From Candidatus Kaiserbacteria bacterium (GTDB lineage Bacteria; Patescibacteriota; Minisyncoccia; Phycocordibacterales; UBA918): 64,000 nucleotides of DNA. Numbering within the stretch: the stretch's first letter is position 1; every line of letters starts with the position of its first letter. Positions 12,175 through 21,513 of this stretch are shown piece by piece. The position numbers were made by a program, and so were the translations under genes. The DNA lies in NCBI GenBank assembly GCA_020428795.1, contig JAGQME010000001.1, forward strand, positions 24,178 through 88,177, read 5' to 3'. The notes beneath the pieces are model-generated. The model was not told where the DNA came from and did not search any database. It saw only the letters and a list, made by a program, of their open reading frames with translations.

Positions 12175-12246
12175 GCGCCTGTAGTGAAATGGATATCACA
12201 ACTGACTTCGGATCAGTTATTCTGGGTTCGAGTCCTGGCAGGCGCA
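12175..12246 (+). tRNA. tRNA-Arg (anticodon TCG), CCA not encoded
   Basis: GCGCCTGTAGTGAAATGGATATCACAACTGACTTCGGATCAGTTATTCTGGGTTCGAGTCCTGGCAGGCGCA. Acceptor GCGCCTG/CAGGCGC; D-stem GTGA/TCAC; anticodon stem ACTGA/TCAGT with loop CTTCGGA; T-loop TTCGAGT. Confidence 0.8.
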
Positions 12247-12295
12247 CAATATTAAATCCCCCTTTTAAAAGGGGGATTTAATATTGTGCGCCTGC
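12238..12295. terminator. About 25-bp perfect palindrome that incorporates the 3' acceptor strand of tRNA-Arg
   Basis: GCAGGCGCACAATATTAAATCCCCC-TTTTAAAA-GGGGGATTTAATATTGTGCGCCTGC; the left arm begins inside the tRNA, and the core is the same AAATCCCCC/GGGGGATTT motif as the hairpin at 10588. Confidence 0.6.
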
Positions 12296-12383
12296 GAAAA
12301 AGTCTGGGAGGCTGTTTTGATAGGACTAGACAAGGTGTATCGAAACTGTACCGAGTGTTATTTAACAATGTATAATAATATTA

Positions 12384-12668
12384 ATGGAATTATCAGAAAG
12401 ATATATAAAAACCCTTGAAAAAGAAGGTTTTATTAATATTTACGAGTGGCAGGATGTATCAGGTACCGAATATCCTTTGCATAGTCACCAAGATAAGGTC
12501 ACTATATTTTTAACAGACGGTTCGGTAACTTTTGATTTTTCAGGGGTTAAGAAAGAACTAGTGGCCCCGATCCGGTTTGATGTCCCACCAAATACCCCAC
12601 ACTCGGCTGTAGTCGGTCCCCAAGGGGCAATTTTTATTGTTGGTGAAATGATAGAGGGTGACTCTTAA
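12384..12668 (+). CDS. Small cupin-fold protein
   Basis: 94 aa; YPLHSHQDKVTIFLTDGSVTF ... PPNTPHSAVVGPQGAIFIVGE matches the cupin two-His motif pattern. Confidence 0.5.
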   Translation: MELSERYIKTLEKEGFINIYEWQDVSGTEYPLHSHQDKVTIFLTDGSVTFDFSGVKKELVAPIRFDVPPNTPHSAVVGPQGAIFIVGEMIEGDS

Positions 12669-12703
12669 GGATTGTTTCTTAATTTAGAGATCGTTTTATT
12701 TTT

Positions 12704-14515
12704 TTAGGACACCAAATTTTTTGACCAAGCTTTTACAATATTTTGTATGTTGGCGATCCAGTCGTCAGAATTATTAACTTCACCAATACTATCAACAATT
12801 TTATCTATTAAGATCTTTAGGTTATTGTGGTTAAACTGCTTGTTCTCTTCTCGCAGTTGTTTGAGTGTTTTTAATAATTCAATAAATTGCTTGATGGTGA
12901 GAGGGGCGATTTTTTGCTTTTGGCCTTTATAACCAACGGTATTCGCAATATAAAAAGTCTCAGCACTGTCAGTGTGAATTGTAGGGGCTAAGAAGACACA
13001 ACGGGCATTATCGTGCTTGTTTTCAAAATCACGTAAGTGTCGCATGACGGGTTGTCCCTCATTAAACCATTGGTCACGGCCGTTTAACATTGTGACCTCA
13101 CAGATCATATTAAAGCTATTGTAGAAACATTCAATGTCAGCCAAGCCACCTGGTGCGGTTGAAGTTGGTTGATTGTCGTCACCGACTGGGTAATTTGGTT
13201 TGATTTCTTTTGCGTCGTTTAGGGCGTACAGTCCCATTGTTGTTAGGTATTCAAGCATTAAGGCTCGATTTTCTAGTTCAAATATTTTTTCTAGTTGCTC
13301 GATGTAATCAGTAATTGATGAAATTGGTTGTGATTTGAGACGATTATTTTTTTCTTGTAAATCTTTACGTATCAAGCGTAAATTACTGATATGTAACGCT
13401 AGATCATCTTCAGTCATGGCGGATATAGCCGGCTGTTCATCAACTGTTAAACCAAGTTCGCTTTGCAATTCGATTACATTTTGATAGAGAGTATTGGCAA
13501 TTTCCGACAATTTATCTTTAGTATGCCAAGGTAAAATAGGTTGATTATCATCAGATAGATAGGTTAAATAAGCTTTTTTATCTACAAATTGTTTGGGTTT
13601 ATAGAATTCACTTTCAAATAAAGCTTCAATCTCAGTGTGTCGATTAGGTTCTAGGTCAATGTAGAAGCCATTACCTCGAATACGAACAAAACTGGTTAGA
13701 CGAAAGTATCTAATCGCATTATCACCGTAATCTTGCAGGTTTGTAATGAGTTTATTAATTTTTGCTTGATTACCAGTTCCTAAGAAATTAGTAATGAATT
13801 GTTTACGATATTTATCACGTATTTTTTTGCGTTCGGATTTCGTCTTGCCATTTTGTAGGTTGCGTAATTCGATTATTTTTCTTGCGTAGGACTCAATATC
13901 AGTATATTTAACCAAAGATGGTACAAAGAGTGAAAATTCCCCCTTGCTAATCCCCTTCGCCTTCTGTCCTTGTTCCATCTCCAATCTATTGACGGTGCTG
14001 ATTAGCTTTAAAGTAGCCACAAAAGGCACAGTCCCGTAATTACCATCGTTAGTAAATTCATTACTAGCTGGATTAGGTATTTGCCATTTAATAAATGATT
14101 TTAAGAACACTTCACCGGTGTTTTGGTCATCTTTGATCAGTTTTTTACCCAGCTCGGTTATCTTTAAAATTCCGTTATCAATAATCACAAAGCCAAACTT
14201 AGTGAGCGGGTTTAACGATTGGCGACCCCGCATCGAAAAGTCGGTGTAATTTTTTAATCTGAGAATCCTATCAATCGTTTCGTCATTAATTTCTAAGTCG
14301 GTGTCATTTATATTATTGATGATGTCCGGAGTTAATCCATTATAAAATTGCGTGTTGCCAAAGCCATAAAGTCTGTTTTTTATCAAAAGTTTCTGATAAT
14401 TGGCTTGATTAGCCTTATCCCAAGGCTTATTTTCAAGTAATTTAGTCACCACCAAAAAATCACGGAGACGTTCTGGGTTTCTGACCGTTGTTGTGATAGA
14501 CCAAGCTTTTAGCAT
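12704..14515 (-). CDS. Type IIS restriction (or nicking) endonuclease, AlwI / N.BstNBI / PleI / MlyI family
   Basis: 603 aa. Segments NPLTKFGFVIIDNGILKITELGKKLIKDDQNTGEVFLKSFIKWQIPNP, AIRYFRLTSFVRIRGNGFYIDL and MLNGRDQWFNEGQPVMRHL...CVFLAPTI match the conserved blocks of the RE_AlwI family as I recall them for N.BstNBI. Adjacent to a two-domain methyltransferase. Confidence 0.72.
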   Translation of the reverse strand: MLKAWSITTTVRNPERLRDFLVVTKLLENKPWDKANQANYQKLLIKNRLYGFGNTQFYNGLTPDIINNINDTDLEINDETIDRILRLKNYTDFSMRGRQSLNPLTKFGFVIIDNGILKITELGKKLIKDDQNTGEVFLKSFIKWQIPNPASNEFTNDGNYGTVPFVATLKLISTVNRLEMEQGQKAKGISKGEFSLFVPSLVKYTDIESYARKIIELRNLQNGKTKSERKKIRDKYRKQFITNFLGTGNQAKINKLITNLQDYGDNAIRYFRLTSFVRIRGNGFYIDLEPNRHTEIEALFESEFYKPKQFVDKKAYLTYLSDDNQPILPWHTKDKLSEIANTLYQNVIELQSELGLTVDEQPAISAMTEDDLALHISNLRLIRKDLQEKNNRLKSQPISSITDYIEQLEKIFELENRALMLEYLTTMGLYALNDAKEIKPNYPVGDDNQPTSTAPGGLADIECFYNSFNMICEVTMLNGRDQWFNEGQPVMRHLRDFENKHDNARCVFLAPTIHTDSAETFYIANTVGYKGQKQKIAPLTIKQFIELLKTLKQLREENKQFNHNNLKILIDKIVDSIGEVNNSDDWIANIQNIVKAWSKNLVS

Positions 14516-14536
14516 GGTCTGATTATGGCATAAAAG

Positions 14537-16525
14537 CTAATAATTAGTAATAAGTACCTCTACGGTCTTGTTATTTTTAGCGCTGGAGTGATAGTTGGAA
14601 TTTTTGTAATGATAATCCAATTTATGGACTTGGTAATTATGTTCTTTGGCCCATTTCTTTATTATTTTGTTAACATCGCCTTTATGTTCTAAGACGTTTG
14701 ATAGAGCAAATCTTACCTTTTTCTCGTCCAGTCTAGTCAAAAGTGAATAAAGATCCTTCTCATCCTTTTCAGTCCAGCCCCCCATTTCATTATAGCTAGC
14801 TAGACCCAATAGATAAGGTGGATCTAGGTATACAAAATCATCTTTATCCAACTTAATAGTTTCAATATCACGAAAATCTCCATTTTTAAAGGTTATTGTC
14901 TTTTCATTTGATATTTGGTTAAAAGCCGCTACGTTTTTTCTAGAACTGCCATTGTAGTCTCGTTTACCGACTGGCAGATTAAAATCACCGCTCGAATTAA
15001 ATCTTATTTGGTTATTAAAGGCGTATAAAACCAGCACTAACAGTAAATCAATCTGAGTTTTGTCTTGATTAAACTCATTACGGAGTTTTAGAAAAGCTTT
15101 TTTATTGTATTTTCCTAAACCTACTGAGCTATCAGCTTTATAGTGGTCGTAACCTTTGATATAGCTCTGACTTAAGTTAAAACGCTGAATGATATTAATT
15201 ATTTTCTGGTTCAGATCTTCAAAATTGTTGTTTTGAATCAATTTTAACAAGTTAACAACGTTATGATTTTTTTCGACACAGACTATATTTTGGGCTGTGG
15301 CATTAATACCAACGTTTGCACCACCGGAAAACACATCATAAAAAGTCTTAATGTCATCGGGAAAGAATTTTGTGATTTGCGGTAGAAGTTTGTGTTTACC
15401 ACCGGTGTAATTTAACGGCGATTTAACAAAACCACTTTGGACAGGGTTGTTTCTTGAAGCCATTATTTTCCGGCTTGAATTTGAAGAGACATTTACTTTG
15501 CACAAAAATATACGTTCCTTCAGATCATCTTTATTGGATTTACCGGTGGTAAATTGTCTAAAGTTAGTTTCAAAAACCTTTGTCTCTCCTCGTCTTTTTA
15601 AGGCTGATAGTATTTCATGGTCACTAATTCTCGACTGTGATCTCACATTTCCAGCTGTACCCATATCGTTATAAGAAACAAGAATGTATTTAGCTTTGAT
15701 GTTATCTATCAAATCACCAAAAGCAACCCCGGCCGATTTCATGTTGTATTTACTTTTGATGTGCGAACGGTCCATTTTTTTAGCAACTCCAAAAACCGCC
15801 CCTTTTTTCCAGGTAGCAATATTTTCTAGTAAATGATAAGCATCGGAATACTGTCTCGAATTATACGGTGGATCAATATAAACAATGTCGGCTTCTATTT
15901 TTTTTACCAATTCATTAGCGTCTTCTTTGTATATTTCAGTTAGACGAGTAGATTTTTTTAGTTCTAGAGGCAATAGAAAAAGCTTCTTTTCGGGAATGTC
16001 TATTTTTCTATAGGCGTCATAATGACCAACAGTGTTAGCGATTTTATCTAAGGCGTAAATTAACGATGTTATTAGATAGGCTTTCTCTCGGTAAGTGATT
16101 ACCTTTTTTTTAAATAATCCTTCAATATCGTCCCTAATAAAGCCTATTTTCTTAGCGTTTTCAGCGTCAAAATAAGTGTTAGAGAAGTTTTTAGAGAAGT
16201 AATTTTCTGGGTATTTTTGGGCTATTATATTGTTATAATACTTTAGTTTTTCTCTTAATTTTTTTTCTTGTATTTTGTCTTTACCAAAAAAAGCGGTGTA
16301 TACATAAGAATTTGAGTCCAAAATATCGTTTACGATAATTTTAGATTGATCATAAAAGTGATTGGCCACGGTACCGGTACCGGCAAAAATATCAGCAAAT
16401 GAATCAAATTTTATGTTTTCATCTCTTATTATTTTGTCTATAAAAGATAGAAGTTTGGTTTTAGAACCAAGATAGCGTCTCTGGGCCAGGTTAACCTTTT
16501 TATTTCCAAAATAGGCATCTTGCAT
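14537..16525 (-). CDS. Fused two-domain N6-adenine DNA methyltransferase (two Dam/D12-class modules), type IIS modification enzyme
   Basis: 662 aa with two copies of motif I + motif IV: FADIFAGTGTV ... VYIDPPYNSRQY and FYDVFSGGANVG ... VYLDPPYLLGLASY. Tandem MTase modules are typical for asymmetric type IIS sites. Confidence 0.85.
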   Translation of the reverse strand: MQDAYFGNKKVNLAQRRYLGSKTKLLSFIDKIIRDENIKFDSFADIFAGTGTVANHFYDQSKIIVNDILDSNSYVYTAFFGKDKIQEKKLREKLKYYNNIIAQKYPENYFSKNFSNTYFDAENAKKIGFIRDDIEGLFKKKVITYREKAYLITSLIYALDKIANTVGHYDAYRKIDIPEKKLFLLPLELKKSTRLTEIYKEDANELVKKIEADIVYIDPPYNSRQYSDAYHLLENIATWKKGAVFGVAKKMDRSHIKSKYNMKSAGVAFGDLIDNIKAKYILVSYNDMGTAGNVRSQSRISDHEILSALKRRGETKVFETNFRQFTTGKSNKDDLKERIFLCKVNVSSNSSRKIMASRNNPVQSGFVKSPLNYTGGKHKLLPQITKFFPDDIKTFYDVFSGGANVGINATAQNIVCVEKNHNVVNLLKLIQNNNFEDLNQKIINIIQRFNLSQSYIKGYDHYKADSSVGLGKYNKKAFLKLRNEFNQDKTQIDLLLVLVLYAFNNQIRFNSSGDFNLPVGKRDYNGSSRKNVAAFNQISNEKTITFKNGDFRDIETIKLDKDDFVYLDPPYLLGLASYNEMGGWTEKDEKDLYSLLTRLDEKKVRFALSNVLEHKGDVNKIIKKWAKEHNYQVHKLDYHYKNSNYHSSAKNNKTVEVLITNY

Positions 16526-16696
16526 AGCTACAGTGTAGCATTGATTGATTTTAGCTTGGTCTAAGCTTGTGGAAAATTTTTAGTTGCCTAAGCTAAAATC
16601 AGTTCCCTGTCTTAGATAGTTTCTTATTTTATCATTAATATATTTGTTTATAACACTAAAATGAACAGCTGTAATACTATATAATATATACATTAT

Positions 16697-17359
16697 ATGG
16701 TTCGAGATGAAAAAAAGCTAGAAATGGCAACGTATTATCGCAAGCGGGGTTTTTCTTATTCTGAGATAGCTAAAATAGTGGGAGTTTCAAAAGGTACAGT
16801 GAGTGCTTGGCTTAGTAAAAAATCCTTTTCAAAGAAGATAAAAACAGAAAATATCGCCCGTTCAGCTAAAGATAGCGCTACTCGACTGAGGTTGATTAAT
16901 TCAGCTCGCTATAAAGAACGTAGTAAGTTGTATGCACAAACCATAAAAGATGCTAAAACCCAATTTAAGCTCTACAAAAAAGACCCGCTATTTATCGCTG
17001 GCCTAATGCTCTACCGTAGCGTTGGGGCCAGTAAAGATGAAAGATTGATTAGGGTCACTAACTCAGAGTTAGATATTCATCGGATATTTATTAAGTTTAG
17101 TAAGACTTATTTAGGAGTAGAAAAAGACCAGATCAAGTTTTGGCTCCTGCTCTACCCTGATTTAGTTGAGAAAAGCTGTGTTAATTATTGGTCTAAAGGC
17201 TTAAAACTAAAATCTGCTCAGTGGTATAAAAATCAGGTTGTTTCTGGGCGAAGTAAAAAACAAACATTGCTTTATGGAGTTGGAAATACTATAATCGGAG
17301 GCACTGTTTTAAGGTTGAGGTTGATCACTTGGGTGGAGTTAGCTTTAAAAGAGTTGTAG
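16697..17359 (+). CDS. Hypothetical protein with N-terminal helix-turn-helix
   Basis: 220 aa; FSYSEIAKIVGVSKGTVSAWL is an HTH (sigma region-4/resolvase-type); the remainder is basic with no recognisable domain; lies between the R-M genes and tRNA-Gly. Confidence 0.4.
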   Translation: MVRDEKKLEMATYYRKRGFSYSEIAKIVGVSKGTVSAWLSKKSFSKKIKTENIARSAKDSATRLRLINSARYKERSKLYAQTIKDAKTQFKLYKKDPLFIAGLMLYRSVGASKDERLIRVTNSELDIHRIFIKFSKTYLGVEKDQIKFWLLLYPDLVEKSCVNYWSKGLKLKSAQWYKNQVVSGRSKKQTLLYGVGNTIIGGTVLRLRLITWVELALKEL

Positions 17360-17377
17360 GTACAATTAAATATAAAT

Positions 17378-17448
17378 GCGGCCATGGTTAAGTGGTATAA
17401 TGAGTCCTTGCCAAGGATTAGTCGGGAGTTCGATTCTCCCTGGCCGCA
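17378..17448 (+). tRNA. tRNA-Gly (anticodon GCC), CCA not encoded
   Basis: GCGGCCATGGTTAAGTGGTATAATGAGTCCTTGCCAAGGATTAGTCGGGAGTTCGATTCTCCCTGGCCGCA. Acceptor GCGGCCA/TGGCCGC; anticodon stem AGTCC/GGATT with loop TTGCCAA; T-arm GGGAG-TTCGATT-CTCCC. Confidence 0.88.
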
Positions 17449-17451
17449 CAA

Positions 17452-17480: not shown

Positions 17481-17600
17481 GACTGTGGCCAGGGGCGTAG
17501 CTTTGTGCATACAAAGCGTTGCGCAGAATCGAAAAGCTTTTGTGATACTTTTGAGCTTTACAGCGAAAAAGTATCCAAAAGGTGTACAGAATCTGTAAGA

Positions 17601-17621
17601 TTCGATTCTCCCTGGCCGCAC
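17601..17621 (+). repeat. 21-nt perfect direct repeat of the 3' end of tRNA-Gly(GCC), T-loop through discriminator
   Basis: TTCGATTCTCCCTGGCCGCAC is identical to the tRNA 3' end. Upstream segments TGTGGCCAGGGG (17485-17496) and GAATCGAA (17526-17533) are complementary to it. Confidence 0.85.
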
Positions 17622-17630
17622 CCAATCAAT

Positions 17631-21364: not shown

Positions 21365-21406
21365 AAATTATAATACCCACAGGATTTCCTGTGGGTATTA
21401 TAATTT
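21365..21406 (+). terminator. Perfect 19-bp-stem hairpin directly after tRNA-Pro
   Basis: AAATTATAATACCCACAGGA-TTT-CCTGTGGGTATTATAATTT. Confidence 0.65.
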
Positions 21407-21492
21407 TCGCTAGGGAATCGAAGCCCGATTGAGCTATTTTGAGAACGAAGTGAATCAAAATAGCCAATTGGGATACTGTTCGTGTTGCGAAA

Positions 21493-21513
21493 GATTCCCG
21501 GCTCCCCGACAAA
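21493..21513 (+). repeat. 21-nt perfect direct repeat of the 3' end of tRNA-Pro, T-loop through trailer
   Basis: GATTCCCGGCTCCCCGACAAA is identical to 21343-21363 plus 3 trailer nt. Upstream GGGAATCGAAGCCCGA (21413-21428) is an inverted, slightly mutated copy of the T-arm. Confidence 0.85.

Follow-up and report, generated by a model that had tools for sequence, protein, structure and literature searches.

A predicted type IIS restriction-modification cassette of the AlwI family, inserted between resident genes of a Candidatus Kaiserbacteria genome

Between a tRNA-Arg and a tRNA-Gly gene in a 64-kb stretch of a Candidatus Kaiserbacteria genome (the window), two neighbouring genes encode an AlwI-family restriction endonuclease (REase) and a fused adenine methyltransferase (MTase). 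Our analyses indicate that they very probably constitute a functional two-gene type IIS restriction-modification (R-M) cassette, horizontally acquired and lodged in a variable intergenic hotspot between resident genes. Comparison with other genomes showed that the cassette is mobile and located its insertion point. As judged from this comparison, the foreign part is the ~4 kb alone from the cupin stop codon to the conserved HTH promoter, and the cupin and HTH genes on either side are resident (Table 1). The result corrects an over-extended island call made in a sequence-only reading of the same DNA, and points to a minimal two-ORF R-M unit that circulates among Patescibacteria/CPR genomes and lands in a recurrent variable spot.

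Table 1. Features of the locus (positions in the window)
Feature	Position	Strand	Basis or remark
tRNA-Arg(TCG)	12175..12247	+	ARAGORN and Rfam; backbone neighbour, beside the CCA-adding enzyme gene in relatives
Small cupin-like gene	12384..12668	+	Resident backbone, outside the mobile unit
Inserted segment, ~4.0 kb	12669..16636	.	Empty-site alignment; each boundary +/- ~30 nt
AlwI-family REase, 603 aa	12704..14515	-	Pfam, PADLOC, N.BspD6I/ss.BspD6I matches, AF2 fold
M-R spacer, 21 nt	14516..14536	-	TGn-CATAAT box, conserved in 5/5 cassettes compared
MTase C-terminal module, aa 361-662	14537..15445	-	Dam-family, T4 Dam-like N6-adenine MTase
MTase N-terminal module, aa 1-360	15446..16525	-	D12-class alpha-type N6-adenine MTase
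Insert-specific sequence upstream of MTase gene	16526..16636	-	Carrier homology limit; HTH promoter block from ~16637
HTH_23 protein gene, 220 aa	16697..17359	+	Resident backbone
tRNA-Gly(GCC)	17378..17449	+	ARAGORN and Rfam; backbone neighbour, syntenic in relatives

The cassette and its two enzymes

Four other CPR genomes carry an MTase gene (M, 662 aa) followed, after a spacer of 20-21 nt, by a REase gene (R, 602-604 aa), with entirely different flanks. The M-R pairs of the CPR carriers share 71-87% nucleotide identity, limited to both ORFs and ~20-25 nt upstream of the M ATG, and the gene downstream of the cassette differs in every carrier genome. It is because like pairs sit in such unrelated contexts, with homology confined to the ORFs, that we regard the two-gene cassette as mobile. 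The REase clade is CPR-wide, with >100 homologs at 66-77% identity.

Within the cassette, the MTase gene comes first, and a conserved -10-like box stands ahead of each of the two genes. The TGn-CATAAT box at 14522-14530, 6 nt ahead of the REase ATG, is a putative extended -10 and may give the REase its own, possibly leaderless, transcript besides read-through. The conserved TGC-TACACT box at 16532-16540, also 6 nt ahead of the ATG, is the putative extended -10 of the MTase gene. Of 60 gene starts, 9 show this box-before-ATG arrangement, versus 1.7% of all ATGs.

The MTase ORF (14537-16525, minus strand, 662 aa) joins in one chain two D12-class N6-adenine modules, each of which, when scored alone, matches Pfam MethyltransfD12 (PF02086) nearly end to end (7.2e-31 for the N-terminal and 2.6e-31 for the C-terminal module). 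The N-terminal module has FAGTG (motif I) at aa 47 and DPPY at aa 218 and matches PADLOC PDLC03373, the profile of a stand-alone 339-aa MTase, at 3.5e-111; searches of it against the PDB and the NCBIfam Dam profile gave no match. The C-terminal module has a T4 Dam-type motif I, FSGGA, and DPPY at aa 568. It scores 165.1 bits against NCBIfam TIGR00571 dam (cut-off 114.85 bits) and aligns end to end with T4 Dam (4.7e-41). The mutual similarity of the two halves is confined to the motif level. The sequence-only reading was thus right about two complete modules with DPPY twice, but not about a strict FxGxG in both, given the FSGGA of the second; its term "Dam-class" fits the C-terminal module alone, the only one to score above the NCBIfam Dam cut-off and to look like T4 Dam.

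The REase consists of an N-terminal DNA-binding region followed by a C-terminal PD-(D/E)XK catalytic domain (~aa 396-603). An HMM search gave a full-profile match to Pfam RE_AlwI (PF09491; E 3.9e-85, 286.9 bits, profile positions 2-441 of 441; curated cut-off 23.1 bits), which bears out the proposed membership in this family and, with it, the description of the pair as an AlwI/N.BstNBI-family REase with a tandem double m6A MTase. The REase also matches, over its full length, PADLOC PDLC03393 (4.5e-124), a REBASE-derived profile labelled "Type II nicking endonuclease". N.BspD6I is matched with an E of 2.7e-31 at 25% identity, and ss.BspD6I with an E of 1.4e-17 in the C-terminal domain. An AF2 model (pLDDT 72) superimposes on N.BspD6I across the whole chain with a TM of 0.72-0.75 and displays the modular fold of N-terminal DNA-binding domains and a separate catalytic domain, with low confidence precisely at the catalytic core, residues 414-486. 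The catalytic residues, E422, D460, E473-V-T475 and E486, are invariant across the clade (49-119 members compared). E422/D460/E473/E486 align with the N.BspD6I block holding E418 and D456; these two are the equivalents of E422 and D460, and both are mutated in PDB entries 6qnz and 5lhc. An exact-sequence look-up of the REase gave no hit, but the homology search recovered the identical NCBI protein, whose annotation already names it as AlwI-family. Taken together, these comparisons show a full-length AlwI-family endonuclease with intact catalytic motifs.

Mode of cleavage and recognition site

The R-M pair is real and probably functional. In the mechanism that we propose, the two different D12-class modules of the fused MTase would place N6-methyladenine on both strands of an asymmetric site, protecting host DNA. 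The REase would bind this site as a monomer via its N-terminal domain, and its C-terminal PD-(D/E)XK domain would cut a few bases to one side. By analogy with FokI, MlyI and AlwI, we lean towards cleavage of the second strand once two catalytic domains have transiently dimerised, and a homodimerising double-strand cutter of the MlyI/AlwI type is the most likely identity of the enzyme. MlyI and AlwI are homodimeric cutters without a small subunit (PMC3017599). The caveat of the sequence-only reading that the enzyme could be either a cutter or a nickase is upheld, but the neighbourhood of the cassette holds no small-subunit gene in any carrier, which moves the odds towards a cutter. A tblastn search with the catalytic domain detected no second copy in the 64-kb window and none within 8 kb in seven carrier loci. 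Candidates for a small subunit were short proteins from an exhaustive representative search; the two "small-subunit-like" database proteins that were checked proved to be fragments, one from a split ORF and one from an adapter-truncated contig.

The REase might instead be a natural stand-alone strand-specific nickase, resembling N.BstNBI/N.BspD6I with no partner, in which case restriction would proceed by nicking only. This is unlikely, though three points speak for it: the best PADLOC profile carries the nicking label, which implies that its curators place the clade among nickases; the nearest solved structure over the whole chain is that of the nickase N.BspD6I; and no gene for a small subunit lies nearby. 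However, the label of PDLC03393 was probably transferred by similarity, and N.BspD6I, which is just 25% identical to the REase, itself falls in another profile, PDLC03394 (1212 bits, versus 129 to PDLC03393). BstNBI and BspD6I, moreover, are subunits of a heterodimeric cutter and not true solitary nickases (PMC3017599), and both the two-strand MTase and the strong conservation in >100 homologs agree with a classical defence by double-strand cleavage. There is a small chance that the enzymes of the CPR-wide REase clade truly work alone as strand-specific nickases, or that they recognise a sequence not seen before; if either were true, the pair would be an R-M system based on a natural nickase, and the enzyme a possible new reagent for nicking DNA.

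Loss of REase activity, with the MTase left to serve as an orphan or regulatory methylase, is a common fate of R-M systems, and nothing more specific speaks for it here; with both ORFs at full length relative to their homologs and the catalytic residues invariant, we consider it very improbable. Scarcely credible, in turn, is a heterodimer of the BstNBI/BspD6I type in which the REase would act as the large subunit and a distant gene of the same genome would supply the small catalytic one. The family offers a precedent (PMC3017599), and the C-terminal domain does match ss.BspD6I (1.4e-17), but the small subunit of BspD6I is the adjacent downstream ORF, whereas here the downstream neighbour differs per genome and no adjacent ORF encodes such a subunit. 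The REase has no close sequence relation to N.BstNBI/N.BspD6I, no paralogue of the catalytic domain appeared in the tblastn searches of the window and the carrier loci, and a distant partner could not move along with a two-gene cassette.

Site avoidance was assessed for all 5-mers against a Markov-3 expectation, in carriers versus non-carriers, and no candidate site gave a signal. The counts of GAGTC, GGATC, GCATC and GGATG do not stray far from expectation, all four sites occur inside the cassette, and a depletion of GATC is common to carriers and non-carriers. The sites suggested earlier, GAGTC or GGATC, gain no support from the computation, and the family also includes GCATC-type enzymes. 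Since the AlwI family spans several specificities (PMC9799307), the site is not readable from family membership. Transfer of a specificity from the A. lwoffii and Geobacillus relatives was rejected because the identity is too low, and a literature search for a CPR methylome motif found nothing relevant.

Insertion point and resident neighbours

The ORF listing, ARAGORN and Rfam confirmed the positions at which the four ORFs and both tRNA genes had been placed, and the segment is indeed more AT-rich than its surroundings: with a window GC of 0.395 on average (sd 0.016), the tRNA-to-tRNA segment is the lowest-GC 5.1-kb stretch (0.349), and the GC of the insert is 0.347 versus 0.399 in the remainder of the window.

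Among 60 syntenic relatives, tRNA-Arg, cupin, HTH protein and tRNA-Gly follow one another in this order as conserved backbone, and the tRNA-Arg to tRNA-Gly interval measures 5130 nt here versus a median of 1339 nt in relatives. The cupin-like gene, whose Pfam Cupin_2 match is sub-threshold, occupies the matching position in 22 of the 60 relatives with both tRNAs. The HTH_23 gene, which always adjoins tRNA-Gly(GCC) and has a strongly conserved promoter block, occurs in 43 of the 60, all lacking the R-M pair. Neither gene lies beside the cassette in the other carrier genomes, and none of 80 syntenic relatives carries the REase or the MTase. The horizontal acquisition proposed in the sequence-only reading is therefore borne out for the R-M genes, a similar pair of which sits in unrelated CPR contexts. 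The 220-aa HTH protein was also considered as a controller of the R-M pair and rejected, being a backbone gene in those 43 relatives; no small HTH controller gene moves with the cassette, which is thus one without a controller protein.

Alignment of the window with eight empty-site relatives revealed that the insert stands in place of a terminator hairpin found 3' of the cupin gene in these relatives, and that backbone sequence, the HTH promoter block, sets in again at ~16637. The nearest backbone relatives are just 58-77% identical in the CCA-adding enzyme. The site is a hotspot, the same interval in relatives holding Fic/DOC, MoxR-vWA, GHKL ATPase and TrmB-type genes. No att sites, inverted repeats or target-site duplications were found around the insert. 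The segment is not flanked by direct repeats of either tRNA, its far end bearing no repeat of tRNA-Arg, and neither the ORF list nor the Pfam scan contained an integrase.

The sequence-only reading had taken the whole 5-kb interval, cupin and HTH genes included, as a single tRNA-flanked accessory island, and low GC throughout, a tRNA gene at either end and repeats nearby do favour such a tRNA-integrated unit; however, relatives without the R-M pair keep the cupin and HTH genes in synteny as backbone, there is neither an integrase nor a bracketing repeat of a tRNA 3' end, and the repeats beside the tRNAs are those of an unrelated family of elements, so that this reading can practically be set aside. 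When presence and absence are compared across relatives, the 5-kb unit fails and the R-M pair alone is absent, and the tRNA genes are syntenic neighbours and not demonstrated integration targets.

The hairpins and repeats at the tRNAs belong to a separate, lineage-wide family of ~130-nt structured elements 3' of tRNA genes; related genomes have them throughout, behind tRNA-Gly, tRNA-Arg and tRNA-Pro. The copy of the tRNA-Gly 3' end is part of this family and lies outside the segment. The hairpins and repeats had been read as a sign of acquisition, but are tRNA-linked and not att sites of the insert. These elements are more unusual than the R-M pair, and a literature search on them found nothing relevant.

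Comparison with known systems

The R-M pair is of a standard, well-known kind of type IIS defence cassette, already correctly named by automatic annotation. The AlwI R-M system (GGATC 4/5) and the plasmid systems of A. lwoffii pH7-48 and Geobacillus pGS18 belong to the same Pfam family and, like the present cassette, lack a small subunit. The two plasmid systems also have the same layout, with a fused two-module adenine MTase and then the REase. Their REases are, however, just ~24-31% identical to the present one, the A. lwoffii enzyme matching in the catalytic domain only, and fall in PADLOC PDLC03463, whereas the present REase falls in PDLC03393. The order of the MTase modules is swapped as well, the Dam-like module being N-terminal in A. 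lwoffii and Geobacillus and C-terminal here, and the A. lwoffii system has a small HTH controller gene while the present cassette has none.

N.BstNBI/N.BspD6I (GAGTC), the large subunit of a heterodimeric type IIS enzyme, provides the nearest solved structure, and its catalytic block aligns with that of the REase. The lengths are nearly equal (604 aa for N.BspD6I, 603 aa here), but N.BspD6I belongs to a separate profile cluster (PDLC03394), and its adjacent small-subunit ORF is missing here. The same-family MlyI and PleI (GAGTC), homodimerising type IIS cutters, have a single-polypeptide REase without a partner (PMC3017599), the mode that would be expected here by analogy.

Fused MTases described as "DNA adenine methylase + C-terminal Dam" accompany AlwI-family REases in M. 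bovis, M. meleagridis and S. uberis (PMC12898733). Likened by description, these share the module order and REase family of the present cassette in different phyla. In the SfaNI-like AlwI-family system of Caldicellulosiruptor (GCATC/GATGC), an asymmetric site carries m6A methylation (PMC9799307), as would be predicted for the present pair. The cutting mode (cutter or nickase) and specificity of the AlwI-family clade identified here could be of practical interest to enzyme developers.

The endonuclease and the methyltransferase

The gene pair is genuine: a type IIS restriction–modification cassette of a well-known family, intact and acquired horizontally, in a Candidatus Kaiserbacteria (Patescibacteria/CPR) contig. 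The family is already correctly annotated in NCBI, where the protein identical to the endonuclease carries the name 'AlwI family type II restriction endonuclease'. All ORFs and tRNA genes listed in the sequence-only reading are real and lie at the positions it gave (see the table), and its assignment of the endonuclease to the RE_AlwI family is confirmed by a Pfam match covering the whole profile (E 3.9e-85). The REBASE-derived PADLOC profile PDLC03393 is also matched end-to-end (4.5e-124).

Coordinates of the features in and around the tRNA-Arg to tRNA-Gly interval
Feature	Position	Strand	Basis
tRNA-Arg(TCG)	12175-12247		
Perfect 58-nt palindrome	12238-12295		
Degenerate element copy	about 12286-12362		
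Cupin-like ORF	12384-12668	+	ORF call
Endonuclease ORF, 603 aa	12704-14515	-	ORF call
Cassette box	14522-14530	-	
Methyltransferase ORF, 662 aa	14537-16525	-	ORF call
Cassette box	16532-16540	-	
HTH ORF, 220 aa	16697-17359	+	ORF call
tRNA-Gly(GCC)	17378-17449		
tRNA-linked element	17485-17623	+	
21-nt copy of tRNA-Gly 3' end	17601-17621		
Second tRNA-linked element	21381-21512	+	

The solved structure nearest to the endonuclease is the nickase N.BspD6I (2.7e-31, residues 92–571), and the C-terminal domain also resembles the small catalytic subunit of BspD6I (1.4e-17). The AlphaFold2 model, built from an alignment of 49 homologs (pLDDT 72, with the lowest confidence in the catalytic core), matches N.BspD6I along the full length of the chain (TM 0.72–0.75, E about 1e-21), and the fold search with this model returned the BspD6I small subunit as the sole other significant fold family. 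Residues E422, D460, E473-V-T475 and E486 align to the BspD6I catalytic block, in which E418 and D456 are the positions mutated in PDB 6qnz and 5lhc, and they are invariant throughout the clade. The endonuclease is a genuine and intact member of the AlwI family.

The sequence-only reading had left it as either a cutter or a nickase. The family includes homodimeric cutters such as MlyI and AlwI, with FokI as the class prototype, and BstNBI/BspD6I, a heterodimer in which the adjacent ORF supplies the small subunit and the large subunit on its own is a nickase (PMC3017599). We found no second copy of the catalytic domain in the 64-kb window, nor in seven carrier loci up to 8 kb from the cassette. 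An exhaustive search for the domain did include some proteins of 160–240 aa among its matches, and the two that were placed in genomic context are both artefacts: one is half of a full-length gene that has been split, namely the downstream part, and the other, a 183-aa 'protein' on a 734-nt contig, is a truncated AlwI-family gene. This public metagenome contig (ERZ27297286 k119_71132; locus L090) opens with a Nextera transposase adapter, AGATGTGTATAAGAGACAG (positions 1–19). Because no second copy lies nearby and these two short proteins are artefacts, we favour a homodimerising double-strand cutter as the probable state of the enzyme. A solitary nickase comes second and is rather unlikely, its main support being the label 'nicking endonuclease' on PDLC03393.

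Scored apart, each half of the methyltransferase is a nearly full-length D12-class module (E about 1e-31), with motif I preceding DPPY. The C-terminal half belongs to the Dam family (TIGR00571, 165 bits; cut-off 114.85) and aligns end-to-end with T4 Dam (4.7e-41). The N-terminal half, which gave no Dam match and no PDB match, is the counterpart of a stand-alone methyltransferase profile in PADLOC. Of the two Dam-class modules proposed earlier, the two D12-class modules with their motifs therefore stand, but the Dam match is confined to the C-terminal one. Since the halves are alike at the motifs only, the protein is a fusion of two lineages rather than a tandem duplication.

The insertion site and the neighbouring tRNA-linked elements

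The AT-richness noted earlier is borne out by a GC content of 0.349 in the tRNA-to-tRNA interval, the minimum among the 5.1-kb stretches of the window (mean 0.395, sd 0.016). We compared the interval with 80 loci in which the adjacent CCA-adding enzyme gene has a relative (58–77% identity); none of these loci contains the endonuclease or the methyltransferase. Most have the order CCA enzyme, tRNA-Arg(TCG), cupin, HTH, tRNA-Gly(GCC), tRNA-Pro; where both tRNAs are present, the HTH gene occurs in 43 of 60 loci and the cupin gene in 22. The Arg–Gly interval has a median length of 1339 nt; that of the window, at 5130 nt, ranks 59th of 60. Eight 'empty-site' relatives have a GC-rich terminator hairpin after the cupin stop codon and, beyond it, a strongly conserved HTH promoter block, whereas in the window the terminator is gone and the block restarts at about 16637. 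Given this empty-site order and the resumption of the promoter block, the foreign DNA spans about 12669–16636, with the cupin and HTH genes as residents.

The proposal of a horizontally acquired, tRNA-flanked island of 5 kb thus survives for the restriction–modification pair, but not for the cupin and HTH genes, which are part of the resident backbone. The island is smaller and does not involve tRNA integration: neither an integrase nor an inverted repeat nor a target duplication was found at the cassette, and the repeats near the tRNAs form a separate element family.

Four further CPR genomes (from Moraniibacteriota, Paceibacterota and others) carry the cassette, with the methyltransferase gene (662 aa) preceding the endonuclease gene (602–604 aa) by a 20–21-nt spacer and with wholly different flanking genes in each. 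Nucleotide identity among carriers is 71–87% across about 3.8 kb, and homology runs from only about 20–25 nt 5' of the methyltransferase start codon to the endonuclease stop codon. The cupin and HTH genes are missing at the other carrier loci, and no controller gene moves with the cassette. Its GC content is below that of the host flanks in the window (0.347 vs 0.399) and in three of the four other carriers.

Because relatives hold different cargo in the Arg–Gly interval, it is a recurrent variable or defence-like hotspot; this cargo comprises Fic/DOC, a bpMoxR AAA+ and vWA pair, a GHKL (HATPase_c_3) protein, TrmB-type regulators and a SAM methyltransferase (tRNA-Gly to tRNA-Arg interval of comparison loci L009, L026, L039, L040, L049 and L052). 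The gene for the 220-aa HTH_23 protein (region 16637–17359) always ends 10–20 nt 5' of tRNA-Gly(GCC), and its promoter block, TGTTTATA..AAAATGAACAnnTGTAA..TATATAATATA, is unusually conserved.

The structures at the tRNAs are unrelated to cassette insertion. A conserved element of about 130–140 nt that follows tRNA genes has as its 3' terminus the 21-nt copy of the tRNA-Gly 3' end; the same arrangement occurs at 18 of the 61 tRNA-Gly(GCC) genes examined in the window and its relatives, and the second copy in the window lies 3' of tRNA-Pro. The consensus fold of ten copies (RNAalifold) is a three-way junction of 26 pairs, 17 of them with compensatory double changes. A covariance model gave 73 hits in 1.18 Mb, with many copies in L008–L087 and tandem copies at several loci. 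Among the 45 strongest hits, 44 are found no more than 232 nt 3' of tRNA-Gly(GCC), tRNA-Arg(TCG) or tRNA-Pro(TGG), and 26 terminate in a perfect copy of the final 12 nt of the respective upstream tRNA. The core consists of GGAAUCGAA, a long hairpin, GUAC and a short GAAnC-UGUAA-GnUUC hairpin, and the 3' end copies the element's own upstream tRNA from the T-loop to the 3' end. The family has no Rfam match; it is possibly new and represents either a small mobile element targeting tRNA 3' ends or a tRNA-trailer ncRNA.

The palindrome, which begins within the last 10 nt of tRNA-Arg, comprises a terminator and the initial 10 nt of the degenerate element copy. It unites the terminator hairpin with the acceptor 3' strand in inverted copy. 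At this position in relatives, the inverted copies of the 3' half of the tRNA are longer (arms of at least 71 nt in L025) and co-vary with the tRNA of each lineage. In about 13 relatives, the tRNA-Arg gene is reversed relative to the CCA-enzyme gene.

Expression signals and recognition site

In all five cassettes, TGn-(T/C)AnnnT lies exactly 6 nt 5' of the ATG of both genes, suggesting that each has its own putative extended -10 promoter and a short-leader or leaderless transcript. The arrangement is general in this genome: of 60 crude gene starts in the window, 9 have TGnTAnnnT 5–8 nt 5' of the ATG, compared with 1.7% of all ATGs. As SD-like motifs precede only 3 of the 60 starts and TGnTAnnnT is frequent there, leaderless or very short-leader transcripts may be widespread.

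The positions of T4 Dam K11, R116, P126 and R130, which we take to be GATC-contact residues, are conserved in the T4 Dam-like module in our alignment, a weak lead towards a GAT-containing recognition site. GAGTC and GGATC, suggested earlier, as well as GCATC and GGATG, are as frequent as expected in the window and the carriers, and each is present within the cassette. GATC is rarer than expected in window, carriers and non-carrier relatives alike (O/E 0.67–0.75, z from -9 to -28; L001–L087). Known AlwI-family specificities include at least GGATC, GAGTC/GASTC and GCATC (PMC9799307).

Relation to known AlwI-family systems

With 25% identity, N.BstNBI/BspD6I is not a close relative of the endonuclease; N.BspD6I is a member of another profile cluster, PDLC03394 (1212 bits), and scores just 129 bits on PDLC03393. 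The AlwI-type enzymes of the Acinetobacter lwoffii and Geobacillus plasmids belong to a third cluster, PDLC03463, and the likeness of the A. lwoffii enzyme to ours is restricted to the catalytic domain. The fused methyltransferases of these plasmids (L088:1414-3336 and L089:2072-3970, respectively) have the reverse module order, with the Dam-like module N-terminal instead of C-terminal as in the window. Because the order is swapped, separate fusion events are implied by these sequences. The window-like order, paired with AlwI-family endonucleases, is found in M. bovis, M. meleagridis and S. uberis (PMC12898733).
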